Origin: a virus
Length of the DNA stretch: 64,000 bases
Direction: 5' to 3' (one strand)
IMG/VR virus record: IMGVR_UViG_3300025000_000064
Location: 32,001-96,000 of that record
Numbering within the stretch: position 1 is the first letter of the stretch; each line of letters starts with the position of its first letter. Positions 9,464-48,084 of this stretch are shown here, piece by piece. The translations under genes were made by a program, and so were the position numbers. Below the pieces are notes generated by a model that had not been told where the DNA came from, ran no database searches, and was given only the letters and a program-made list of their open reading frames with translations.

Positions 9464-10123
9464 TTAATTGCCTTCTAACTGTGAATTATTTGTTCTGTAA
9501 ATAGCATCTTTTTTTATTTTATCCAAAAAAACGTATTGTTCAGCGGTCATATTGTCATGATAAAAAATAGTATTATTCTGTACTTTAACCCATATTTTTT
9601 CTAAATCGCATTCCTTTTGTTTTAAAATATGTTCCACTAAACTTCTATGACTGCCAGAACCAACACCAATAATAGAGCCATCTGGTAGCAACCAAAAATT
9701 ATTATAGTTTTTGTAAATTTCCATATCATAAAAGAAATAAACCAACGCTCTTGTTTCTTTTGCTTTTATTTTGTTAAATAAAATATCAAATGCTTGGTTA
9801 TATCTTCCCACTTTTTCTGTTAAGTGAGATAGTATAAAATGATACAAATATTTTCCATCTTTGCAGGAATTTTCGTCAATAGGAACACAGGCAAAAGTCC
9901 AATCATATTTTTCTAGATTTAATTGTTTTGCTTTGTCGGCAATAAGCCTTTCTGCTTGGTCTATAAAGCTAGCATGGTTGCCTTTTCTCCAATTAAATTC
10001 TGGCAAGCAAATCAGCTCTTCGTACTCAATTCCAGAATGGAGATATATTAATTTTAAACAATTTCTACTGTCTGTATCTTTGTTCATTTTCTTTCCTACG
10101 AATGTCTTAATTTTATTACTCAA
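9464..10123 (-). CDS. hypothetical protein
   Basis: 219-aa ORF with TTG start, downstream of the promoter at 10148. Confidence 0.7.
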   Translation of the reverse strand: MSNKIKTFVGKKMNKDTDSRNCLKLIYLHSGIEYEELICLPEFNWRKGNHASFIDQAERLIADKAKQLNLEKYDWTFACVPIDENSCKDGKYLYHFILSHLTEKVGRYNQAFDILFNKIKAKETRALVYFFYDMEIYKNYNNFWLLPDGSIIGVGSGSHRSLVEHILKQKECDLEKIWVKVQNNTIFYHDNMTAEQYVFLDKIKKDAIYRTNNSQLEGN

Positions 10124-10147
10124 CGATATTGCTTTATCATGATTATC

Positions 10148-10176
10148 ATCTTAAACCATAACAAAATAAATGTCAA
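10148..10176 (-). promoter_or_regulatory. sigma70/sigmaA-type promoter
   Basis: AGG-TTGACA-N17-TAAGAT. Confidence 0.65.
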
Positions 10177-10211
10177 CCTATTTCATAAAATAAAATAATA
10201 CTTAATAAAAA

Positions 10212-10229
10212 TAGTGCATTTCTGCACTA
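10212..10229 (-). terminator. intrinsic terminator closing the MII-array operon
   Basis: TAGTGCA-GAAA-TGCACTA followed by a U-tract on the minus strand. Confidence 0.75.
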
Positions 10230-10255
10230 ATTAAAATATCTACATAAATAAGGGA

Positions 10256-10594
10256 TTATAACGAACTTACACGCACATTGTTTATTGTTAAACTTACCAT
10301 TGCTGGCAAAATATTTCTTAATCGTTTATGTAAAAAGAATAATTCTACATTTGATATATTGTCTAAATAAAGTTTTAAATAATGATTATTTATGACAATA
10401 CCAATATTGTCATATCCAATTCTATATAGGATATCTCTTAAATTTTGCTCTGAGGATATACAATACATACCAGAGGTATAAGAATCATTCAAGATATTAT
10501 TTAATCTATCAAGATTTATTTCTTCAAATTGAAAATCACGAAATCCTCGTTCTATTATTCTCGTATTTTTAAAATCAATATCTTTAATAATCAT
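10256..10594 (-). CDS. MII-family small protein (MIIKDIDF, 112 aa)
   Basis: 11-nt overlap with the upstream ORF. Confidence 0.7.
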   Translation of the reverse strand: MIIKDIDFKNTRIIERGFRDFQFEEINLDRLNNILNDSYTSGMYCISSEQNLRDILYRIGYDNIGIVINNHYLKLYLDNISNVELFFLHKRLRNILPAMVSLTINNVRVSSL

Positions 10595-10781
10595 AAAAAT
10601 TCTCTATCTTTAATTTAGTTTGAGCCTCTATCCAATGTTTAAATCTTGAAAAACACTGTTTTTTATAACAATATGTCATGAGTGGCTTTAAAGATGAAAA
10701 TTCCTGCAAATTTATCAACCCTATCATTCTTTCTATTGATATAGGCTTGTTATAATCACACATAATTGTTTTGATAATCAT
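10584..10781 (-). CDS. MII-family small protein (MIIKTIMC, 65 aa)
   Basis: TAATG-coupled to the HNH gene; ends YDY*. Confidence 0.7.
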   Translation of the reverse strand: MIIKTIMCDYNKPISIERMIGLINLQEFSSLKPLMTYCYKKQCFSRFKHWIEAQTKLKIENFYDY

Positions 10782-11620
10782 TATGCAACCTTGTTTAATT
10801 TACTATCAACTTTATCTTTTATCCATTGTGGAATATCTGATTGATTGATATCTTTTACCAAATAAGAATTAGGGAAAATATATTTTAAGGCATATTTTGC
10901 TATTGCAATAGCCTCATTCCTGTCTTTATAAAATCCAAAATCTATATTTTTCTTATTTTTTATAAAACTTATTCTATATCCCCATTTAGTTTCAATAACT
11001 CCTCGAAACAAACCATTAAATTTAGTTATATTTTGATTATTTTCTACCATTGTACATATTCTCAAATTTTCACGTCTATTATCTAATGGGTTTCCGTTTA
11101 TATGGTCAACAACCATGCCTTTTGGACAATTCATTATAAATCTATGTAGGGATATAGAATCTTTCTTGGTAATCATTACATAATTATTTTTTTTAACATA
11201 CCATCTGTTTCTAATTACCCTTCCTAAGTCTTCTAAAGAAATTAGAAATTCTTTTGTTTCTGCGTTGTCTTTATGTACATAAATAATTACATAATTATTA
11301 CATATTTTATAATTATTGTTTGTATTTAGTTTGTATTTTCTTAAATTATGCAATTTTCTTCTGTTGTCCACACATGAAACTTTACATCCAATAAGTTTCG
11401 CAAGTTCTTTATCGGGCAAGCTTGCATTGTTTTTTAATATTTCTGTGTGTTCATTCGTCCAGATAAAAAAATTACTTTTGCGCAATTTTAATTTTTTGGC
11501 TTTTGCCGAAATAGATTTTTTAGACCTGTTTGGCAGCAACATTAAGAGATTATCAATGTCCAGTTTTGAATAATTATCTTTTAGCAATTTTTCTTCTTTT
11601 TCTGTCCACAATTCTGCCAT
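10781..11620 (-). CDS. HNH homing endonuclease with N-terminal Myb/HTH-like repeats and AP2-like C-terminus
   Basis: SLHRFIM..PKGMVVDHINGNPLDNRRENLR; WTEKEE and WTNEH repeats. Confidence 0.85.
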   Translation of the reverse strand: MAELWTEKEEKLLKDNYSKLDIDNLLMLLPNRSKKSISAKAKKLKLRKSNFFIWTNEHTEILKNNASLPDKELAKLIGCKVSCVDNRRKLHNLRKYKLNTNNNYKICNNYVIIYVHKDNAETKEFLISLEDLGRVIRNRWYVKKNNYVMITKKDSISLHRFIMNCPKGMVVDHINGNPLDNRRENLRICTMVENNQNITKFNGLFRGVIETKWGYRISFIKNKKNIDFGFYKDRNEAIAIAKYALKYIFPNSYLVKDINQSDIPQWIKDKVDSKLNKVA

Positions 11621-12177
11621 TAGTCAATCTGCTTCCTAATATATCCACTAATATCGACACTGTTTTGTTGTCTCACTTCATAGAAACCTCTGCATAGCAC
11701 TCTCTGACCATGTTCTTGGTGGGCTAAGAACGTACCCTCGCCTAGTTCTATATACATATTTCCAACTGTTGTGCTTTTCATCCAATCAGAAACAGGCAAT
11801 CCCATTTTTGAATAAGCTTCGTGTTGGTTTATGCCTTTTGATTCATAAATTTTAAATGCGCTATTGGCACTTACTAACCTGTGAGTATTCCCATTTAAAG
11901 TGGACTGGGTGAGAATATCTGTATTGGATATTTTTAATTCTAAATCAAATTTTTTAGGGTCAACGAAATGCCTTGAAGAATTTCTTAAAATCAAACAATC
12001 TCCCTGTCTTGCAATTGGAGTCTTTTCATTAATGGTAATATCTGACCAGTCTTCTTTATTTCTTCCTAATAAGTCGCATATGTCTTGAACTGTCCAGTCT
12101 TCTGTAACTGGGGCTATTTTTTGAATGTTTTCTGTTGATAGCTCAATGGCTTCTCTTGTTAAAATTTTTGTTTCCAT
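11620..12177 (-). CDS. conserved hypothetical protein (RQGD...H...HxEH family)
   Basis: ARQGDCLI, GNTHRL, LAHQEHG, RGFYEVRQQ motifs. Confidence 0.6.
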   Translation of the reverse strand: METKILTREAIELSTENIQKIAPVTEDWTVQDICDLLGRNKEDWSDITINEKTPIARQGDCLILRNSSRHFVDPKKFDLELKISNTDILTQSTLNGNTHRLVSANSAFKIYESKGINQHEAYSKMGLPVSDWMKSTTVGNMYIELGEGTFLAHQEHGQRVLCRGFYEVRQQNSVDISGYIRKQID

Positions 12178-12207
12178 TTTGTTCTCTCTTTCTTTTGTTT
12201 GTAAATT

Positions 12208-12363
12208 CTAATTAAATACTAAATATTTTGTTCTTATCAATTCTTTTATTGTTCTTTCAAACCTACCATTAATTAAACTTTGAGTCGCACAAAATCCTCT
12301 GTTTTTATACCATCCAAAATCCACATTATTGACTTTGATTATTTTAACTTCTTTTATTATCAT
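12208..12363 (-). CDS. MII-family microprotein (51 aa, MIIKEVKII)
   Basis: hand-translated; below the ORF-track cutoff. Confidence 0.65.
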   Translation of the reverse strand: MIIKEVKIIKVNNVDFGWYKNRGFCATQSLINGRFERTIKELIRTKYLVFN

Positions 12364-12366
12364 AAT

Positions 12367-12414
12367 CTAATATCTGTCCTTTGTCAATCTGTTGAACATT
12401 TGCTTAATAATCAT
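12367..12414 (-). CDS. MII-family minigene (15 aa, MIIKQMFNRLTKDRY)
   Basis: hand-translated; 11-nt overlap with the upstream ORF. Confidence 0.45.
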   Translation of the reverse strand: MIIKQMFNRLTKDRY

Positions 12415-12616
12415 AACTTCTACCAAAAATATTATAGCTATCATATAGCCTCGTACATCTTTCTCCAATTTGCAAGCCTATATTTTTCATTGGAACAGAA
12501 ATACGATAATGCTCATTGTCAAATATCTTTATTAATGTTTCTTCCAAAGTCACTTCCGTGAACATATTTATCTCAAATGTTCCAGTGTCTATGATTCTGA
12601 AAGTCTTAATTATCAT
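12404..12616 (-). CDS. MII-family microprotein (70 aa, MIIKTFRII)
   Basis: 11-nt overlap; ends YDY*. Confidence 0.7.
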   Translation of the reverse strand: MIIKTFRIIDTGTFEINMFTEVTLEETLIKIFDNEHYRISVPMKNIGLQIGERCTRLYDSYNIFGRSYDY

Positions 12617-12779
12617 AGTATCTCCACCTTAATCGATATAAGGAAGAGGCATAATCCTTATAATCTAAAGGGTCTGTTATAAGAAACTCTGGGTAAATAT
12701 ATTTTTCATGATACTTATATCCCATAGTTAAGAAATAATTTTCTTTTAATTTACTCTTTGTGGCTTTTATTATTATCAT
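12606..12779 (-). CDS. MII-family microprotein (57 aa, MIIIKATKS, IYPEFL)
   Basis: hand-translated; ATGA overlap; ends YDN*. Confidence 0.65.
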   Translation of the reverse strand: MIIIKATKSKLKENYFLTMGYKYHEKYIYPEFLITDPLDYKDYASSLYRLRWRYYDN

Positions 12780-12931
12780 TGCAATCTATACTCATAACAT
12801 GCCCACATACAACATTTTTTATCATTAAACGTAAATGATTTATTCTTAACAAAGCCTCTACATATATGCCAAACTAATCCATTGCATGGAACATATAATA
12901 TTTCAAAATCCTTTATTGCTTTAATTATCAT
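12776..12931 (-). CDS. MII-family microprotein (51 aa, MIIKAIKDF, Cys/Trp-rich)
   Basis: hand-translated; AAGGAG RBS. Confidence 0.65.
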   Translation of the reverse strand: MIIKAIKDFEILYVPCNGLVWHICRGFVKNKSFTFNDKKCCMWACYEYRLQ

Positions 12932-12956
12932 TTATTATTTCTCCTTATGCAGTTTG

Positions 12957-13106
12957 CTAAAAATCGCAATGATTCCAGAACCTATTAGTATAACGCTCTT
13001 TAGTATATTCGTTATATTCAGGATACATAAATAAATACACAGTATCTGTCAACAAATAATCTCCATCATCAAATATAGGAATACGGATTGCGTTCTTAAT
13101 TATCAT
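12957..13106 (-). CDS. MII-family microprotein (49 aa, MIIKNAIRI, MYPEY)
   Basis: start moved from 13142 to the coupled ATG. Confidence 0.65.
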   Translation of the reverse strand: MIIKNAIRIPIFDDGDYLLTDTVYLFMYPEYNEYTKERYTNRFWNHCDF

Positions 13107-13407
13107 ATAAATATTCCTCCAAGCTATTATTCCATGAGCCATAATTGGGTTCTCTACTACTTGTATAATAATTCTTAATCATAACCTCTTTGCATGACTT
13201 TGAATATTTTACCAAAAACTCTGGGTATAAATGCTTATTATATACAGCTTGATATGATTTAAATACTTCTTTATTTATATCTAAATAATACAAATTATTA
13301 TTGTCATTTTTATTATAAAATTTATAACATGGTATTCTATAAAAATATTTTCTGAGTCTCCCAGATTGACTTGCAAAGTTTTTACTGTAAGCATCTTTTA
13401 TTATCAT
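13096..13407 (-). CDS. MII-family small protein (103 aa, MIIKDAYSK, LYPEFL)
   Basis: start moved from 13419 to the ATGA-coupled ATG; ends YDN*. Confidence 0.7.
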   Translation of the reverse strand: MIIKDAYSKNFASQSGRLRKYFYRIPCYKFYNKNDNNNLYYLDINKEVFKSYQAVYNKHLYPEFLVKYSKSCKEVMIKNYYTSSREPNYGSWNNSLEEYLYDN

Positions 13408-13577
13408 ACTGCAACCCATTCTATCAAATAACCATTTTCATTCTTGCTTCTTTTGGCTCGTTTAACATCTCCGCTAATAAATGGATAACAGACAATTCCT
13501 TTATCAAATGTTCTGTTCCAGATAAAAATTTCTACTTCATAATATTTTTTGTTAATTCTGATTTCTCTAATTATCAT
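13404..13577 (-). CDS. MII-family microprotein (57 aa, MIIREIRIN)
   Basis: hand-translated; AGGA upstream. Confidence 0.65.
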   Translation of the reverse strand: MIIREIRINKKYYEVEIFIWNRTFDKGIVCYPFISGDVKRAKRSKNENGYLIEWVAV

Positions 13578-13584
13578 AATAAAA

Positions 13585-13755
13585 TCATCCTATTAATTTC
13601 CAGTTAAAGTCAGTTGTATTCATTTGAGGTTTTCCATATGCTATTAAGCCAGTATTGTGATGATAATAACAATCCTCTATATAATTCAAAAGGGTTCTGC
13701 TATTGTAAAATGGCTTGTCTATTCCTGTTATTATCCTAAATTGTTTAATAATCAC
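13585..13755 (-). CDS. MII-family microprotein (56 aa, GTG start, MIIKQFRII)
   Basis: hand-translated; GTGA overlap. Confidence 0.65.
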   Translation of the reverse strand: MIIKQFRIITGIDKPFYNSRTLLNYIEDCYYHHNTGLIAYGKPQMNTTDFNWKLIG

Positions 13756-13928
13756 AATATATCACTCAATTTTAATCCGTATAAATAATAGTATTTTTCG
13801 ATATATTCATCTAAGTCGTTGTATTGGGCTGGATAATATATCTTAAACCAATAATCTTTAAACATAGAGCATAATTGACCATGTTTATTTGTTGCAGATT
13901 TTATTAATTTTATTGTTTTGATAATCAT
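13752..13928 (-). CDS. MII-family microprotein (58 aa, MIIKTIKLI)
   Basis: hand-translated; TAATG coupling. Confidence 0.65.
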   Translation of the reverse strand: MIIKTIKLIKSATNKHGQLCSMFKDYWFKIYYPAQYNDLDEYIEKYYYLYGLKLSDIL

Positions 13929-14086
13929 TATATCTCTTTTCTGAAGCTATAAAATGCGTTTGTATTATACCCAATCAAAGCTCTCTTACAAATAATAAAC
14001 TCTGGATATATTTTTATTCTATCTTGGCTATTTGTATGCAATATAAAAACTTCATGGTAATGCTTATAGGCATCCAATATAATCAT
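13928..14086 (-). CDS. MII-family microprotein (52 aa, MIILDAYKH, IYPEFI)
   Basis: hand-translated; ATGA overlap. Confidence 0.65.
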   Translation of the reverse strand: MIILDAYKHYHEVFILHTNSQDRIKIYPEFIICKRALIGYNTNAFYSFRKEI

Positions 14087-14235
14087 AGTAATTCCTTTAT
14101 CATATCATCAAATATGAAATCCTCCTTTGATAAATATTCATAAAAGCATGCATCAAATTCTTTTAAAAATATTCTATTTGATATATAGTTTCTCTGAAAA
14201 TATTTTCTTAAAAATGATTTATCTATTATTATCAT
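14083..14235 (-). CDS. MII-family microprotein (50 aa, MIIIDKSFL)
   Basis: hand-translated. Confidence 0.6.
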   Translation of the reverse strand: MIIIDKSFLRKYFQRNYISNRIFLKEFDACFYEYLSKEDFIFDDMIKELL

Positions 14236-14238
14236 TAT

Positions 14239-14514
14239 TTATCCATCTCTTCTAAAATTAAACTTGGACTCAATTAGATATTTTATTTTAAAGATATCTT
14301 TAATGTTTAAGCTTTTTATTGCTTTGTTTAACTCTAAATACAACTTCTTCCTTATATCACATTCTGGAATTAATGTTAGTTGCTTACAGTGGCTCTTATA
14401 TTCAATTCCACCTATCTCTGGGCAAAATTTGTTCCCAAAATAGTCTGTTTCAAATCTTAAGAATGCATCATCTGGCAAGTCTTTTATTAATTCTCTAAAT
14501 TCTTTTAAATACAT
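14239..14514 (-). CDS. hypothetical protein
   Basis: 91-aa ORF with GGAAGG RBS. Confidence 0.65.
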   Translation of the reverse strand: MYLKEFRELIKDLPDDAFLRFETDYFGNKFCPEIGGIEYKSHCKQLTLIPECDIRKKLYLELNKAIKSLNIKDIFKIKYLIESKFNFRRDG

Positions 14515-14674
14515 TGCTTTCCTTCCATTTGCTATTTTTAAAAAAATAAGCCATATCGAATTTATGATAATCTTCTGCCATCTTTACAATATCATCCTTG
14601 TCGGAAATATCACTAAATAATGCAGAAATTAATAAATAGTTAAATTTATAAGATATAACTCTTCTTAATATCAT
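14495..14674 (-). CDS. MII-like microprotein (59 aa, MILRRVISY)
   Basis: hand-translated; ATGA overlap with the 14671 ORF. Confidence 0.5.
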   Translation of the reverse strand: MILRRVISYKFNYLLISALFSDISDKDDIVKMAEDYHKFDMAYFFKNSKWKESNVFKRI

Positions 14675-15336
14675 ATCTGAAAAGCAATTCCTTCTTCTGC
14701 AAAATCAATACCAGCATTCATGCAACACAGATGCTCTTTGACTGTATTAAATGTTGAAGGTTGAATATAATGTCTATTAGATGTCGGACACCAGTATTCT
14801 ATAAAAGATATGCCCCTTATTGCATTATCTCTTCTGCTGAATCCGTTTCTGTTATCAAACAATGAATCATCTTTTAATCTATATAAATTATATAAAGAAC
14901 CTTTAACTTCGCAAGAATCTATTTTGTTGAATAAATCAGGACTCATAATTTTTGCTAAATCAACTCTTTCCATAAACCATGCAATCAAATCTGCATTTGT
15001 TATTGATAGAATATCTTGAATTGTGATATTCTTTAAATCAACAAGTTTTTCTTCTATTGGCGTGAATGGAGATGATGTTTCAAACACTGCTTGCTCAACA
15101 TAATTAAAACTTGATTCGTCTTTGGCATGTGTTTTAATTTCACCTTTTGGCACTTCTGTTAATACAAAGAATTGGTATTTGTCTTCAACGATATCATAGC
15201 AACACATGAAGTCCAAGCCAATATCTCTCAGGTCATGTGTGATGATTCTTTTGTTGACGTTAATCTCTGAATTGAAATAGTTCAATGATTGTTCTTTAAC
15301 AAAACTCTTGATTTCTTTTAAGTCTTTTGCTGTCAT
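14671..15336 (-). CDS. DUF6745-like conserved hypothetical protein
   Basis: C-terminal YNLYR...IEYWCPTSNRHY resembles the CPSTGR.Y motif family. Confidence 0.5.
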   Translation of the reverse strand: MTAKDLKEIKSFVKEQSLNYFNSEINVNKRIITHDLRDIGLDFMCCYDIVEDKYQFFVLTEVPKGEIKTHAKDESSFNYVEQAVFETSSPFTPIEEKLVDLKNITIQDILSITNADLIAWFMERVDLAKIMSPDLFNKIDSCEVKGSLYNLYRLKDDSLFDNRNGFSRRDNAIRGISFIEYWCPTSNRHYIQPSTFNTVKEHLCCMNAGIDFAEEGIAFQI

Positions 15337-15351
15337 TGTTTTCTCCTTTTT

Positions 15352-15609
15352 CTATTTACTGTATACTTTTACTGGTAACCCTTTATTATATATAAATCTG
15401 TATAATTCTGCAACGTATGTTTTTGCCCATTTTGATTTTTCTAAATTGTATGTATTCAGTTTGGCAATTATTAAATCTTCTGGTATATATCTCATCAAGA
15501 AAGAGCCTAAATTATACATTCTGAATCTTCTACTTTCTATATTGTTAGAAATATAGGCAATATCATGAGATGGAGCGAAAGCATATATTTTATTTTTCAT
15601 GATTATCAT
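15352..15609 (-). CDS. MII-family small protein (85 aa, MIIMKNKIY)
   Basis: ORF track; YIPEDL motif variant. Confidence 0.65.
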   Translation of the reverse strand: MIIMKNKIYAFAPSHDIAYISNNIESRRFRMYNLGSFLMRYIPEDLIIAKLNTYNLEKSKWAKTYVAELYRFIYNKGLPVKVYSK

Positions 15610-15679
15610 TATATCATACCATTATATTTATCTGCAATATGTTCATTAAAATATTCACGTCCATGCCTTAGAGAGGCTT

Positions 15680-15790
15680 TCATATATCCAGCCACCCATA
15701 TCTTAAGCCTTCTGGATAAAGGACAAACTCATTATTTGCATAATTATAAACAATGGCATTTCTTATATATTTGTCTCTCAATATTATCAT
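15680..15790 (-). CDS. MII-family microprotein (36 aa, MIILRDKYI, LYPEG), possibly a frameshifted gene
   Basis: hand-translated; followed by a 24-aa ORF (15609-15683) in another frame. Confidence 0.5.
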   Translation of the reverse strand: MIILRDKYIRNAIVYNYANNEFVLYPEGLRYGWLDI

Positions 15791-15800
15791 ACATTTATTC

Positions 15801-16016
15801 CTATGTCTTTTTTAAAATATTTACATTTTCATAAGGGACTTTTAGTTTATCTTCAAATTGTTTTCTTAATTTAGCATGAAGATTATAAGAATTATAATAT
15901 TCTATCGCCCCTAATAAACAGTATTCTGGAAGAACATATTCTAAAACACATGAGTTTATGAATTGCACTTTAAGGTTTTTGTTAGGAGATTTATCTAAGA
16001 AATTTACTATTATCAT
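15801..16016 (-). CDS. MII-family microprotein (71 aa, MIIVNFLDK)
   Basis: ORF track; VLPEY motif variant. Confidence 0.65.
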   Translation of the reverse strand: MIIVNFLDKSPNKNLKVQFINSCVLEYVLPEYCLLGAIEYYNSYNLHAKLRKQFEDKLKVPYENVNILKKT

Positions 16017-16274
16017 TCTTCCCTTTCTAAAAATTTTTTATTTGGTAACAATATACTTGCGCATTTTTGAGGTATTCCTAATTATAAACTTTGATAATAC
16101 TTCTTTGCCTCTTTTAAAAGAGAAAGTAGTTCTATATATTTTTTTTTATCCTCTATTGCTTTCTCTATTCTGGGGACAAGTACTGGACAATCTTTTTTAA
16201 AATAATCCCTTCTTTGTTCCAATTCTCTTAATGTTTGAGCATGTATATATGTATATTTCATTTGATATTTTCTC

Positions 16275-16712
16275 CTATTTTATTTCTATTGCCTCTTTAT
16301 TTTTATGTTTTGTGTGCCAATAATAATCATAGCATGGAATATCATTTGGAAATATGTCTTTATAAAATTCATAATTCTTAAATAATAAAGCTTGCCTATG
16401 ACTTCTATGAAATTCTTCTAAGCCAATGAATTCTGGCAATGAAAAATTATCATTAATATTGACATCATATAATTTCATTGTGTTTTTATATCCTCGTCTT
16501 ATCCATTCTAAAATCATACAATTGCAATAATATTTTAATGCTTCTATATTATCTTTCCACATCAATGTTGCAGGGTGATTCTTCCAGCCTTTTGATTTAT
16601 TTTCTAATGTATTTATAATCTGAAAAGCCTCCACTCTTTGCTTTCCGAGCCTTCTATAGTCTAAAGCTTTTGCTGATTCATTAAAGTCAGGAAACGGTAA
16701 AAATGTTTGCAT
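16275..16712 (-). CDS. pyrimidine dimer DNA glycosylase family protein (MSMEG_6728/DenV-like)
   Basis: MQTFLP...LDYRRLGKQRVE, HPATLMW, FHRSHRQALL. Confidence 0.85.
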   Translation of the reverse strand: MQTFLPFPDFNESAKALDYRRLGKQRVEAFQIINTLENKSKGWKNHPATLMWKDNIEALKYYCNCMILEWIRRGYKNTMKLYDVNINDNFSLPEFIGLEEFHRSHRQALLFKNYEFYKDIFPNDIPCYDYYWHTKHKNKEAIEIK

Positions 16713-16765
16713 ATATTTCTCCTATATATAATGTATAAACTTTGCCTTATTTATTAATTAATCTC

Positions 16766-16794
16766 ATAATATATCCACTTGGGGGATTTGTCAA
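16766..16794 (-). promoter_or_regulatory. sigma70/sigmaA-type promoter heading the 16.7-10.2 kb operon
   Basis: AGG-TTGACA-N17-TATTAT. Confidence 0.7.
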
Positions 16795-16909
16795 CCTAAA
16801 TTTATATTATTATATAATTATGTTACAAAATAAATAAAAGAAAGGATATTTGAATATCATTATAATCTATATCTATAAAAAGTAAAGCATTAATTACAAA
16901 GGAGAAATC

Positions 16910-17365
16910 ATGAACAAGCTAACACTATTAAGACAAGTCATTGAAAGAGAAGACATTTTGGATGAAAGATTCATTGAGAAATCTTATTTTAAAAATGAAG
17001 AAGATTATTTGTCAATTCTAACAAACACAATTAAAACATTAAAAAAACATGGAATCAATTCACTCATCGGAAACAAAGATTTAAAGATACTTTATTCGCA
17101 AAGAAAAAATGTTTTATTTATATCTCAGCATGCCATCATGGATATTGAAGAAATAATCTCCGTAACAGACGATATGAAGAAAGCAGGAATAAAAGGAGAA
17201 ACGATAACACAAAAATATTCTTTGGAAGATGAGTTCATACTGCACACAATTAGAAATCCTAAAAATGAACTTCTATCAGACTTATCAATTAAGAAATTAC
17301 CAAAACCAAAAATTGACAACAGACAAGTTATAAACACAGTTAAAGATATCAAGAAAGCAAGCTGA
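16910..17365 (+). CDS. hypothetical protein
   Basis: 151-aa ORF with AAGGAG RBS. Confidence 0.7.
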   Translation: MNKLTLLRQVIEREDILDERFIEKSYFKNEEDYLSILTNTIKTLKKHGINSLIGNKDLKILYSQRKNVLFISQHAIMDIEEIISVTDDMKKAGIKGETITQKYSLEDEFILHTIRNPKNELLSDLSIKKLPKPKIDNRQVINTVKDIKKAS

Positions 17366-43735: not shown

Positions 43736-44431
43736 TTAATCATCATATGCCTCCATTTCTTTTTTAATTTTATCTAAGATTTTATCTCTTTTTGAATAAA
43801 TAGCTTTCTTTGAAATATTTAATTTTGAAACCAAATCATCAATAGATAGTCTTTTGTTATTGAACAATCCATAATAATCTATCAAAAATTCTTTATCAAA
43901 AACATTTATGTTGGACAAATCAAATATTTTTATTATATCTAAATTAATATCTACATCGGAAAATGATTTGTCATTATATAATGTTGTAGCCCCTTTTGTT
44001 ACAATTGACTTTTTATTTTTCTTATTCTCCTCATTTTCACGCACAAGATAATTCTTATTGTTATCAAATTTATCTCTTACTTCTCCAACGAGCAAGTTAT
44101 TATTATAGAATTTATCTTCCGCTAAAAAAAATCTTGTTGAATAATAATTTATATTATTTTTTAAATATGTTGAGAATTTCATTTTTTTGGAATATTTAAA
44201 GTTCTCAACACTTTTCATAAAGGTTATCATACAATGAGATTGAACATCTTCAAAATCTATAAGATTGTTTTTGTTTTTGCAAATAACGTTAGCCTCTTTG
44301 TTTATTAAACCAATCACCTTGTAAAGTATTTTGTTTAAGGTTTCCTTGTCTTTTTTCTCTTGATATAGCAAAACTAAATCTTCTGTGTCTTCTCTGACAT
44401 CTTTAAACTTACTAACTATGTTGTTATACAT
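43736..44431 (-). CDS. phage RNA polymerase sigma factor (sigma70 family)
   Basis: region 2-like DFEDVQS...FMKSVENF...KFSTY; region 4 HTH YYGL...SIDDLVSKLNISKKAI. Confidence 0.8.
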   Translation of the reverse strand: MYNNIVSKFKDVREDTEDLVLLYQEKKDKETLNKILYKVIGLINKEANVICKNKNNLIDFEDVQSHCMITFMKSVENFKYSKKMKFSTYLKNNINYYSTRFFLAEDKFYNNNLLVGEVRDKFDNNKNYLVRENEENKKNKKSIVTKGATTLYNDKSFSDVDINLDIIKIFDLSNINVFDKEFLIDYYGLFNNKRLSIDDLVSKLNISKKAIYSKRDKILDKIKKEMEAYDD

Positions 44432-47400
44432 GTCTTCTCAATTCCCGCATAATACATTTCTTTATTAACATATTTCTTATCATCAACCCAACAGGTTGAC
44501 TGCATTATTTTAGTTTTGCCATCTTTCTTTCTTTTTAAAGCAGTGATATATTTTATTTCCTTGTTATTATTGTAGCATTCGTTACTGCAATTTGTCAAGA
44601 TGTTTGATAATTTTTTAACATCTGTATTATCATCAATATCGAAATATATTATTTCTGGGTCATTTATAAAGGACAATATGGATATATTTTCTCCAGCATA
44701 ATCATAATTACCAAAGTTTTTATTATAAGCATCCAATACCTTTAGCTTTATAATGCATAATTTATTTTTATTTACCTTTCTTCCATTTATTTTTTCCCAC
44801 ATCCAAGGTGCAAATTTAACAGTTATTGACTCTCCTAAAAATTCTATTTCGACTCTAGCAGCTCCTTTTTCTGTAACATCTTTACTTCTTATCAACCCTA
44901 TAACATTAATATATTGTTCATTATTTTTATATTGCTCTGCAATATCATCATTCTTTAAATCTGCAATTGGAACTGTGTCAAAATATTTTTCATATGTAGA
45001 AAATAATATCATTGGATTATTTGAAACAGAGAATCCCAATAGTTCTTCTTCAAAATCTTTATATTCTTCAGAAGTAAAATCTTCACCATAATCGTTATTC
45101 AGGGTTAAAGAATTAAGTTCCTCTTTTATTATTCCTTCCAATTCCAATTTAAGATTAGCTTTTTTTTCTTTGTCTTCTTTCTTTGTGCTTTTTATTTCTT
45201 TTACCCTTGCTTCTATTTCTTTATATTCTTCTAATGATTTAGCTTTAGATATTGCTATTGTTTCCAACACAGCATCTTTTAATGTTGTTTTACCTTCTTT
45301 GTATCTCGATAAAGTTTTAGCCTTTTGAATGAACTCCACATAGCTTAATAGCATTTTAGAATTAGATTCAATTGATTTAAGAGAACCTGTTTTTATTAAA
45401 CCTTCTAATGCGGTCTTATTAACAGAAGAACACCTTTCTATCAAGTCCCAAAAACTTTTATATTCTCCATTGTTTTTTCTCTCTTCTAAAAGCTTATTCA
45501 AAGCACTCTCTCCAATGCCTTTAATTGCAGCCAACCCAAATACAATATTATTATCATTATTTATTTCAAATAAATTCGTAGATACATTAATATCTGGTGG
45601 CAATACTTTTAAACCAATTCTAAAGCTTTCCGATATATATTGTTTTATCTTATCAGAACTTCCAATTTCATGATTCAATAAACATCTCATATATTCAACT
45701 GAATGATTAGCTTTTAAATATGCTGTTCTGTAAGCCAAGATAGCATAAGCAAGACTATGAGATTTATTAAAAGCATATTGTCCGAATCCTTCAATATTAT
45801 TATATAAGCCTATTGCAAAACTCTCATCAATATTGTTGTTTATGCAACCATCAACAAATATTTTTCTATGCTCGTCAATAATTTCTTTCTTCTTTTTGCC
45901 GATACCTTTTCTTAATTCATCAGCTTGAGACATTGTGTACCCCGCAAGCACTACTGCTAAACGCATTACTTGTTCTTGATAAATCATAGTTCCATATGTA
46001 TCAGACAATACATCTTCTATTTGAGGGTATCTATATTTTATGTTTTCTGAATTATGTTTATTGTTAATATAGTCCTCAATTGCTCCACACTGAATAGGAC
46101 CAGGTCGATATAATGCTATAACAGCGTCTAAATGCTTTAATTCTGAAGGATTAAGAGATTTAAGTAACCCTTGCATTCCATTGCTTTCTAATTGAAACAC
46201 GCCAGAAGAAAATCCCTGAGATAACATATTATACGTTTTTTTATCATCATATTCTATGTTGTCAAAACTTACTTCTGTTTCTTGTCTTGCTTTTATTAAA
46301 TCAGTTGTATTTTTTATAATTGTCAAGTTTTTTAAGCCCAATATATCATATTTTACCAATCCAACTTTCTCAGCATTATCCATAGAATAAGCAGTTGCTA
46401 TTGTTCCCTCTTTTGTTCTAACCAAAGGGCAAATATCTGAAATATCTCTATCTGAAATCATATATCCACTAGCATGACAGCCTGAGTTTTGTATTCTTCC
46501 TTCTATTTTTTTAGCCATATCTATTATGTTTGCTATTTCTTCATCGTTGTCATATAGTATCTTGAAAGCAGGACTATCCTCTAATTCACTATCTATTGTA
46601 GAATCTGGCTTGCCACTCATAGCCTTTGTTATTTCATTGGCTTTCTTAAAATCTAAACCATAAGTGCTTGCAACTGATTTGACAGCAGCTTTAGCCTTTA
46701 ATTCTCCAAAGGTAATGATTCCAGCAACAGAATATTTTCCATATTTTTCTTTTAAATATTCTATTATTTCTCCTCTTCTTTCAATACATATATCTGAGTC
46801 GATGTCTGGAATGCCTATCCTGTCTGGGTTTAAGAACCTTTCAAATGGCAAATTATATTTTATAGGGTCAATTTCTGTGATTCCTAATAAGTAACAAACA
46901 ATACTTGCACCAGCAGAACCTCTCCCTGGACCAGTTGGAATTCCTTGTTTTCTTGCCCAATTTGTGTAATCTTGAACTATCAAAAAATATCCCTCAAAAT
47001 TCATTTGAGAAATAATAGATATTTCATAATTTATTCTACTAAAAACTTCTGTACTTATATTTGTTTTATAGATTCTTTTTATGCCTTTTAATATTTCATT
47101 TTTAAATATTTCTTTTTCATTGTCTGCAAATTTAGGCATGATTGGTTTTCCAATTTCCAATTCTAAATTGCATTTATCAATTATTTCATAAGTATTATCT
47201 ATACAATTATCTATGAAGTCTTGACCGTATTCTTTATGAGATTCACATATTTCTTCATAACTTTTATAATAGAATTCATTGTTTGAGAATTTAAACCTTT
47301 TCTCGTCAGTTAATTTAGCATTTGTGTTTTTGCATAATAATACATCATGAGTGACAGAATCCTCTTTATTTAAATAATGCACATCGTTTGCGATTATATT

Positions 47401-48084
47401 TTTAATATTATGCTTTTTAGACAACTCTATCAATATTTTATTAATTATTGTTTCTTCTTCTAAGTCATGACTGTGAATTTCTATATAAAAATCATCATTG
47501 AAAATATCTTTATAAAACAATATTAAATTTTCTGCTTTTTCAATATCGTTATTTAATATGGCTTGGTTTATGTCTGACATTATACATGCAGATGTACATA
47601 TTAAATCAGAAGAATATTTTTTTAATACCTCATAGTCGATTCTTGGTTTGTAATAAAAATTTTCCAAATTAGCATACGTTATTAGTTTGCACAGATTTTT
47701 ATAGCCTTTATTGTTTTTAGCATATAAGCATAAATGCCTTCTGTTTTCATGATGTTTTAGCTCTTCTGTTAAGCTTTTTAAATTTGTTTTATCTTCACTT
47801 TCTTGAATTAGTTTCATATTATCTTTTAATTCTTTTATTTTAATTTTTAATTCATCGCCCTTTAAGCTTGATTCGCTAAGATATGCTTCAAATCCTACGA
47901 TTGGTTTGATTTCATTCTTTTTGCATTCATTATAAAACTCTATTGCCCCAGACATGACCATGTGGTCAGAAATAAACAAAGCAGAAAGTTCTCTTTGTTT
48001 GCCAAATGCTACATATTCTTTAATTGTTGCCAATCCATCCAGTACAGAATAGTTGGTATGGACATGGTTATCTATATATTTCAT
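44416..48084 (-). CDS. dnaE: DNA polymerase III alpha subunit
   Basis: PHP HVHTNYSVLDG, GPGRGSAGAS, FERFLNPDR..PDIDSD, HASG, VKYDILGL, GVFQLES, YQEQVM, YAFNKSH. Confidence 0.95.
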   Translation of the reverse strand: MKYIDNHVHTNYSVLDGLATIKEYVAFGKQRELSALFISDHMVMSGAIEFYNECKKNEIKPIVGFEAYLSESSLKGDELKIKIKELKDNMKLIQESEDKTNLKSLTEELKHHENRRHLCLYAKNNKGYKNLCKLITYANLENFYYKPRIDYEVLKKYSSDLICTSACIMSDINQAILNNDIEKAENLILFYKDIFNDDFYIEIHSHDLEEETIINKILIELSKKHNIKNIIANDVHYLNKEDSVTHDVLLCKNTNAKLTDEKRFKFSNNEFYYKSYEEICESHKEYGQDFIDNCIDNTYEIIDKCNLELEIGKPIMPKFADNEKEIFKNEILKGIKRIYKTNISTEVFSRINYEISIISQMNFEGYFLIVQDYTNWARKQGIPTGPGRGSAGASIVCYLLGITEIDPIKYNLPFERFLNPDRIGIPDIDSDICIERRGEIIEYLKEKYGKYSVAGIITFGELKAKAAVKSVASTYGLDFKKANEITKAMSGKPDSTIDSELEDSPAFKILYDNDEEIANIIDMAKKIEGRIQNSGCHASGYMISDRDISDICPLVRTKEGTIATAYSMDNAEKVGLVKYDILGLKNLTIIKNTTDLIKARQETEVSFDNIEYDDKKTYNMLSQGFSSGVFQLESNGMQGLLKSLNPSELKHLDAVIALYRPGPIQCGAIEDYINNKHNSENIKYRYPQIEDVLSDTYGTMIYQEQVMRLAVVLAGYTMSQADELRKGIGKKKKEIIDEHRKIFVDGCINNNIDESFAIGLYNNIEGFGQYAFNKSHSLAYAILAYRTAYLKANHSVEYMRCLLNHEIGSSDKIKQYISESFRIGLKVLPPDINVSTNLFEINNDNNIVFGLAAIKGIGESALNKLLEERKNNGEYKSFWDLIERCSSVNKTALEGLIKTGSLKSIESNSKMLLSYVEFIQKAKTLSRYKEGKTTLKDAVLETIAISKAKSLEEYKEIEARVKEIKSTKKEDKEKKANLKLELEGIIKEELNSLTLNNDYGEDFTSEEYKDFEEELLGFSVSNNPMILFSTYEKYFDTVPIADLKNDDIAEQYKNNEQYINVIGLIRSKDVTEKGAARVEIEFLGESITVKFAPWMWEKINGRKVNKNKLCIIKLKVLDAYNKNFGNYDYAGENISILSFINDPEIIYFDIDDNTDVKKLSNILTNCSNECYNNNKEIKYITALKRKKDGKTKIMQSTCWVDDKKYVNKEMYYAGIEKTCITT

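Follow-up and report, generated by a model that had tools for sequence, protein, structure and literature searches.

A tandem array of small phage genes behind a shared Met-Ile-Ile start, with cassette-level variation between strains

The window analysed here is a stretch of 64,000 bp corresponding to bases 32001–96000 of a single virus record (IMG/VR record IMGVR_UViG_3300025000_000064; 123,605 bp, 28% G+C) from an uncultured phage. Its minus strand contains, between positions 10256 and 16016, 17 open reading frames (ORFs) of 15–112 amino acids (aa) that begin with Met-Ile-Ile (MII), 12 of which lie back to back within 12208–14235. The array runs head to tail on one strand at one locus. With a likelihood just above even, it represents a birth-and-death tandem array of early accessory microgenes, whose conserved start is both an inherited family signature and a crossover joint. 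Its members would arise, diverge fast, and be lost or exchanged as whole cassettes.

Under this explanation, the start module ATG-ATH-ATH-(AAR), which encodes Met-Ile-Ile-(Lys)-x-hydrophobic-(Lys/Arg), would be kept by purifying selection on the first residues and would not be maintained by the copying of one DNA word. Selection could target a structural element with which all members begin, efficient (re)initiation and early elongation, or both. The shared 8–11 nucleotides (nt) carry TGA, TAA, and TAA in the other two frames, such that an upstream gene would stop there and the ribosome could restart. The shared start would also be the longest direct repeat between neighbouring cassettes, and crossovers falling there would lead to deletion, insertion, or replacement without breaking the operon.

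Host take-over and counter-defence functions of phages reside mainly in small early proteins, most of which are missed by length cut-offs and are without relatives. The present locus is in effect a small natural library, in which one invariant start precedes at least 18 different bodies. Should that start turn out to act as a tag, or as a joint dedicated to exchange, phage accessory genes would be seen to be organised on a new principle, and the motif could serve as a gene-finding handle. If it were only an inherited signature, the locus would be a further example of a fast-evolving phage microgene array, mainly of value for its screening candidates.

Results

Clustering of Met-Ile-Ile starts and evidence for coding

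The transcription unit considered here comprises the genes between a promoter-like sequence at 16794–16766 and a terminator-like hairpin at 10229–10212, both of which lie where an earlier model-made annotation of the same DNA (hereafter the sequence-only reading) had placed them. The 12 consecutive MII ORFs, five further MII ORFs, and one Met-Ile-Leu (MIL) ORF described in that reading are all present on the minus strand. The consecutive ORFs start at 14235, 14086, 13928, 13755 (GTG), 13577, 13407, 13106, 12931, 12779, 12616, 12414, and 12363, the five others at 16016, 15790, 15609, 10781, and 10594, and the MIL ORF at 14674.

MII starts open 17 of the 24 genes in the unit vs 3 of 222 genes elsewhere in the genome (Fisher p = 5e-18), a genome-wide contrast that bears out the enrichment proposed in the sequence-only reading. 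Among 49 small genes in the adjoining 18 kb there are none. These counts derive from a crude whole-genome gene call (241 genes, ~37,850 residues) in which the starts within the unit were curated. Composition therefore does not explain the MII start, nor is such a start a general trait of the small genes of this phage.

By codon usage, the annotated frame outscored the five other frames in 14 of the 17 members, against about 3 expected by chance. In this test, codon usage was trained on 85 long genes outside the unit, and stop codons and the first four codons of each ORF were excluded. The 15-aa ORF at 12367–12414 failed it. Of the 12 consecutive ORFs counted earlier, this one is left without coding support. 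Purine runs resembling Shine-Dalgarno (SD) sequences precede most starts, and public contigs (5–12) carry the same proteins with the same starts, the GTG start included. Point differences between the window and a sister contig (described below) fall at 13 sites, of which seven are synonymous and six non-synonymous, while strain-variant insertions and deletions within the ORFs measure 9, 21, and 42 nt and are all in frame. The hydrophobic stretches of the members are all too short for a membrane helix, and Tyr makes up 10.4% of member residues vs 5.2% in the proteome. Judged from these sequence features, the ORFs are real genes, with predicted products that are soluble, Tyr-rich proteins of 36–112 aa. 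Frame test, in-frame indels, and clustering together sustain the earlier description of a cassette-like array of real microgenes in one unit.

The same evidence refutes the proposal that the pattern is a compositional or ORF-calling artefact of 28% GC DNA, the probability of which is practically nil. [AGT]TG-ATH-ATH turns up 97 times in the window, both strands counted, and “MI” is the commonest gene start genome-wide, both of which such an artefact would predict. It is contradicted by the clustering at real starts, the coding-frame test, the in-frame indels, and the excess of synonymous differences.

The shared start and its junctions

Conservation starts exactly at the start codon, with none in the 30 nt upstream. 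The information content is 3.3 bits at residues 2 and 3, 1.8 bits at residue 4 (Lys in 10 of 17 members), and 1.1–1.4 bits at residues 5–7, with sampling noise beyond. The resulting consensus, M-I-I-K-x-[IAF]-[KR] (MIIKxh[KR]), fades after about seven residues. The 34 Ile codons at positions 2–3 comprise 18 ATA, 13 ATT, and 3 ATC, the same as Ile usage in the genome (1742:1128:206 for ATA/ATT/ATC, or 57/37/7%), and Lys in the shared start is encoded by both AAA and AAG. Because the Ile codons follow genome usage, their synonymous sites are free and the starts have not recently been copied from a single DNA word. The constraint looks to lie on the Ile-Ile peptide, or at least on ATnATn, and not on one fixed DNA word. 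The peptide-level selection that had been deduced from the varying Ile and Lys codons agrees with this match to genome usage, though ATnATn also fits.

Several kinds of junction occur between the MII genes and the genes upstream of them. Four are ATGA/GTGA overlaps, two are TAATG overlaps, and four are 11-nt overlaps (TATGATWATTAA), in which case the upstream protein ends in YDN* or YDY*. Another four have gaps of 3–10 nt, and the last three have gaps of 25–70 nt with an SD sequence of their own. In frame +1, the sequence ATGATWATTAA contains TGA and TAA, and in frame +2 it contains TAA, so that a gene arriving from upstream in one of these frames ends inside the motif. The translational coupling previously ascribed to most members is compatible with the overlap of 10 of 17 with an upstream gene. 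The other 7 of the 17 MII genes overlap nothing yet retain Ile-Ile. A common first structural element or a binding partner would explain why Ile-Ile is invariant.

The shared start could also be a translation signal and nothing else, with fMet-Ile-Ile-Lys (fMet, formylmethionine) in AU-rich codons providing efficient initiation and early elongation for short coupled cistrons. Reporter libraries in Escherichia coli give strongly raised yields with K, N, Y, or I at codons 3–5 and with an A/U-rich stretch from +7 to +15 (PMC6920384), and many members of the array depend on coupling and have weak SD sites. However, the 49 neighbouring small genes use other AU-rich starts and never MII, and many other AU-rich starts are used elsewhere in the genome. 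A translational signal leaves the strictness of this unit alone unexplained, and as a sole explanation it is distinctly improbable.

Kinship among the members and relatives in databases

A YPE[FYG] motif occurs in five members, and LPEY, IPED, and YPAQY variants of it in three more. In most carriers the site lies 25–29 residues from the start, and no other gene in the crude call of 241 (~37,850 residues) has YPE[FYG]. In addition, an exact 20-nt direct repeat at 10765–10784 and 13912–13931 (ATAATGATTATCAAAACAAT, coding strand) spans the MII starts at 10781 and 13928. Its two copies are 3.1 kb apart, and it is the sole long exact repeat in the unit. Because YPE[FYG] recurs at a fixed distance from the start, and because the 20-nt repeat joins two starts, the 5–7 members of the YPE[FYG] subgroup are taken on sequence grounds to be homologous, and at least part of the array to be paralogous. 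An origin of the bodies from the same DNA read in shifted frames behind a fixed start was considered and ruled out, since the similarity of body DNA is not above that of codon-shuffled controls.

Relatives of the array were found in its own lineage only, both with a HMMER profile of the YPEF subgroup against 1.84 billion representative proteins and with a word-indexed search of 5.8 billion proteins. No member has a match in Pfam or PHROG at E <= 0.01, and none occurs in the five phage records with the nearest DNA polymerases (35–38% identical). By these searches, the array is lineage-specific.

Variation between strains

A 2422-bp metagenome contig from the Joint Genome Institute (L001) matches window positions 14654–12772 at 98.4% identity and 12616–12095 at 88%. 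There are no differences over the 1.5 kb of 14654–13172, 13 point differences over 13171–12404 (~2% of 0.8 kb), and again none over the 125 nt of 12220–12095. This mosaic identity indicates recombination between diverged strains inside the array.

Two differences concern whole cassettes. Positions 12779–12617 of the window are missing from L001, a loss of 163 nt that begins with the ATG of one MII gene and stops one base short of the ATG of the following one. The lost cassette lay between two ATGATAAT starts, and the upstream gene in L001 now ends in TAATG on the next MII start. In the last cassette, the body (~12353–12221) is swapped for an unrelated ORF of 50 aa that also has an MII start. 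Divergence begins directly after ATGATAATAA and ends just before the shared AGTATTTAATTAG, with stops in two frames. The 50-aa protein has no BLASTP similarity to the 51-aa protein of the window, and the alternative cassette does not recur anywhere else in this genome. Neither the loss nor the swap has disturbed the stop upstream or the start downstream. In L001, array content varies between fixed flanks, in line with the sequence-only reading. A smaller change affects the gene that starts at 13106, in which a 21-nt insertion restores a full YPEF and Ile3 is replaced by Val. This conservative Ile to Val change, in strain variant P0006, is the only strain substitution seen at residues 2–3.

The cassette deleted from L001 is present on 8 contigs and the deletion-type form of the upstream gene on 4, while the last cassette is of the window type on 8 contigs and of the alternative type on 5. 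These counts suggest that both haplotypes circulate.

Explanations for the conserved start

The cassette differences in L001 could be taken to mean that the start was selected as a joint for cassette exchange. ATGATWATW(AA) would then be a frame-independent stop/restart signal and recombination joint, a coding-embedded counterpart of the promoter–stem-loop modules (PeSLs) of T4 or of integron attC sites. Any ORF bearing the motif could slot into the operon, and unrelated bodies would be recruited behind it. An upstream stop is no more than 10 nt away from 14 of 17 starts, ten of which overlap it, the motif supplies TGA/TAA in frame +1 and TAA in frame +2, the bodies are unrelated, and both cassette differences between the window and L001 break inside the motif and leave the operon intact. 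Against this, the seven starts without overlap include three with their own SD and 25–70-nt spacers that retain Ile-Ile all the same. With third positions free, the starts share no more than about 8 nt of exact DNA and show no homogenisation. Microhomology-mediated deletion would use the longest local repeat regardless, and only two events have been observed. A selected exchange joint is therefore rather unlikely. The stop/restart junction for adding cassettes that had been put forward as an alternative in the sequence-only reading draws real support from the loss and the swap at the motif in L001, but with 7 of 17 starts lacking overlap it is not the whole story.

A further possibility is that Met-Ile-Ile(-Lys) is a common address tag on variable payloads, read by one partner (packaging or ejection apparatus, chaperone, protease, or host target) in the manner of the T4 capsid-targeting sequence. 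The constraint lies at the peptide level with synonymous sites free, the unrelated replacement cassette in the sister strain retains MII, and the only substitution at residues 2–3 is the one in P0006. Such a tag would, however, span only about seven informative residues, and there is no fixed processing site of the [LI]xE type, which occurs in 7 of 17 members vs 69 of 222 other genes. The operon is of an early type with a DNA-repair gene and is not a head module, and no partner is identifiable. The specificity of methionine aminopeptidase (MetAP) normally leaves the initiator Met in place when Ile follows it, and an address tag would thus have to include fMet/Met. An address tag is improbable, and the targeting, packaging, or docking role that had been proposed for MII(K) is not upheld by the short informative region, the lack of a positioned [LI]xE site, or the early-type operon.

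Taking the two functional proposals together, it is possible, though doubtful, that MII(K) is a purpose-built module, either an address for one partner of about 18 payloads or a coding-embedded, frame-independent plug for the trade of microgenes.

The explanation as a birth-and-death array with an inherited start has difficulties of its own. Local alignment finds the protein bodies (residues 5–end or 10–end) no closer to one another than shuffled sequences (z ~1), and cassette DNA past codon 5 is no closer than codon-shuffled controls (z ~0). The divergence of the bodies that had been noted earlier is confirmed by these comparisons, apart from the YPE[FYG] motif that a subgroup has in common. 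The YPEF subgroup apart, common descent of all 17 members is not demonstrated, and unrelated ORFs may have gained the common start. An invariant Ile-Ile with free synonymous sites exceeds the conservation expected from a generic AU-rich or K/N/I/Y-rich preference in early codons, and other genes of the phage start with MNK, MIK, MKL, and so on. The comparison of strains comprises one 2.4-kb contig and protein-level variants. Structure prediction did not reach a confident model, with a mean predicted local distance difference test (pLDDT) score from AlphaFold2 of 52.6 for a YPEF member with an alignment of its paralogues and 40 for the 112-aa member alone. A search of the ESM Atlas gave no usable match.

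Within the birth-and-death array, we regard the recombination role of the joint as a useful by-product and not as its selected purpose, because there has been no homogenisation at synonymous sites and seven starts lie clear of the upstream gene. We infer a duplication origin and early expression for the array, and by analogy its products might act in early host take-over or counter-defence.

Genes of the unit

The features of the unit are described here in the order of transcription, and all are on the minus strand. At its head is the promoter-like sequence TTGACA-17-TATTAT (16766–16794), with an 11/12 consensus match and identified by that match only. The first gene does not begin with MII and encodes a pyrimidine-dimer DNA glycosylase similar to DenV (16275–16712; Pfam PF03013, E = 2.3e-26). 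It is followed by a 71-aa MII gene (MIIVNF..., 15801–16016) that carries the LPEY variant of the YPEF motif and has its own SD behind a 65-nt upstream gap. Its strain variant P0004 has an in-frame deletion of 3 aa. The next MII gene, of 36 aa (MIILRD..., 15680–15790), has a YPEG motif, and its product (P0005) is found on 12 contigs. An 85-aa MII gene (MIIMKN..., 15352–15609) is supported by the ORF scan, the frame test, and public gene calls, and a 59-aa MIL gene at 14495–14674 (ATGATATTAAGA) is identified by ORF scan and junction analysis as a near-member.

The consecutive run opens with a 50-aa gene (MIIIDK..., 14083–14235), which is recovered by ORF scan, frame test, and public gene calls. 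An ATGA overlap joins it to a 52-aa gene with a YPEF motif (MIILDAY..., 13928–14086), and a TAATG overlap leads on to a 58-aa gene (MIIKTIK..., 13752–13928), the start of which lies in the exact 20-nt repeat shared with the start at 10781. The 56-aa gene that follows by a GTGA overlap (IIKQFR..., 13585–13755) has a GTG start, and public collections call the same start. ORF scan and public gene calls support a 57-aa gene (MIIREIR..., 13404–13577). The longest member of the run encodes 103 aa with a YPEF motif (MIIKDAY..., 13096–13407) and ends in YDN* through an 11-nt overlap. Forms of the same length, P0032 and P0033, are called elsewhere, and P0034 has an in-frame deletion of 14 aa.

The gene at 12957–13106 (49 aa, MIIKNAI...) has a YPEY motif, and its sister form is P0006, with an MIV start and the 21-nt in-frame insertion that restores YPEF. 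A 25-nt gap with a strong SD of its own (AAGGAG) precedes a 51-aa gene (MIIKAIK..., 12776–12931) with six Cys residues. These follow the pattern C-x7-C ... CC-x3-C, and three of the six non-synonymous strain differences fall in this gene. The spacing of the Cys residues is such that the protein may bind metal. The 57-aa YPEF gene (MIIIKAT..., 12606–12779) is the one affected by the absence of 12617–12779 from L001, and the 70-aa gene after it (MIIKTFR..., 12404–12616) ends in YDY* through an 11-nt overlap. The 15-aa MII mini-ORF (12367–12414), which has no coding support, is probably a truncated remnant. The run closes with a 51-aa gene (MIIKEVK..., 12208–12363), the body of which (~12221–12353) is swapped in L001 for the unrelated 50-aa MII ORF.

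The mini-ORF overlaps a second promoter-like sequence, TTGACA-17-TATGAT (12359–12387, 11/12), which lies inside it and is identical in the sister contig. Its -10 box includes the ATG of the next MII gene. This putative promoter may drive the downstream genes for a 185-aa protein and an HNH endonuclease. The HNH gene lies inside the array (10781–11620; PHROG 99, E = 1.6e-20). Its product in another strain (P0041) has a 19-aa C-terminal extension that starts with YPDF. A TAATG overlap connects the HNH gene to a 65-aa MII gene (MIIKTIM..., 10584–10781) that ends in YDY*, and the form of this protein in another strain (P0026) has a 7-aa N-terminal extension. The two extensions hint that the endonuclease gene may have been inserted into, or fused with, a YPEF-type cassette. 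The last gene of the unit encodes 112 aa (MIIKDID..., 10256–10594) and is backed by ORF scan, public gene calls, and junction analysis. The unit ends at a hairpin followed by a T run (10212–10229), detected by the terminator scan.

Several genes of the unit are ORFans, i.e., without relatives, among 5.8e9 proteins, and the 221-aa gene of the unit has no homologues outside its own cluster in the same set. No IMG/VR loci related to two larger genes of the unit were found.

The phage and the genomic setting

The genome encodes a 1222-aa DNA polymerase (window 44416–48084, minus strand), for which the best phage matches are 35–39% identical. The top identity to any phage or IMG/VR record is ~39%. 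Other genes encode a DnaB-like helicase, a primase, and a T5-type “DNA transfer protein” (PHROG 1745). No transfer RNA genes were found within the window. No close relative of the phage was found in phage records, IMG/VR, or GTDB genome contigs. A near-identity DNA search with window positions 10000–17000 against 50,697 phage records returned zero matches, and exact 30–34-mers from the array are absent from IMG/VR and GTDB genome contigs. An Rfam search over 9800–17200 found nothing.

Small minus-strand genes fill ~24 kb, from 8 kb before the start of the window to window position 16000. Of the ~64 genes of <=110 aa in this region (genome 24000–48000; window -8000 to 16000), nearly all share one strand. 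MII starts are confined to the last 6 kb of the block, and the remaining genes start with MIK, MNK, MIN, and so on. We read the array as sitting in an early-type, hyperplastic part of a 124-kb low-GC phage genome, a part that would be promoted by the host RNA polymerase and presumably expressed early.

Comparison with known systems

The sequence-only reading did not recognise the arrangement as a described system, but tandem arrays of small lineage-specific phage genes have been described before (PMC5646251; PMC2839356). In the hyperplastic regions of T4-type phages, PeSLs recur as joints at which small early ORFan genes are shuffled (Arbiol et al., 2010, PMC2839356; Comeau et al., 2014, PMC4122927). 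The present locus resembles these regions as a block of small, non-conserved early genes, in which whole genes are inserted, deleted, or replaced between close strains and breakpoints fall on a short repeated motif. It differs from them in the nature of the repeat. PeSLs are intergenic, consisting of an early sigma-70 promoter and a stem-loop terminator that flank each shuffled gene and give it transcription signals of its own, whereas the repeat here is the first 8–11 nt of coding sequence, is conserved as a peptide, and couples translation. Flanking modules of the PeSL type were not encountered in the unit, where most genes overlap or abut. A terminator scan of the coding strand returned only the hairpin at the end of the unit (10229–10212) and one match at 13365–13351 inside the gene at 13096–13407, and there are only three promoter matches of 11 in 12.

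Arrays with over 30 “very similar” genes in the jumbo phages G and 121Q have been ascribed to tandem duplication (Hua et al., 2017, PMC5646251). They have in common with the present locus that small genes, paralogous there and at least in part here, follow one another head to tail in a large phage genome. Unlike those copies, the bodies here have diverged beyond detection, and the first few residues and the YPEF of a subgroup are what remains.

The internal proteins of T4, which form part of the virion, carry a capsid-targeting sequence some 10 or more residues long with a prohead-protease site at its end. The likeness lies in a short shared N-terminus on otherwise unrelated small proteins. 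Here, by contrast, the motif is ~4–7 residues long, there is no processing site, and the operon is of an early type. The [LI]xE sites within the first 30 residues of 7 of 17 members are scattered over positions 3–25. The capsid-targeting analogy fails in its one testable feature, because no positioned [LI]xE is present.

What distinguishes this locus is that the repeated joint is formed by the first codons of the genes, is conserved as a peptide, provides a frame-independent stop, and is the observed site of both cassette loss and cassette replacement. The locus is a database-orphan form of a type of phage locus that has precedents.

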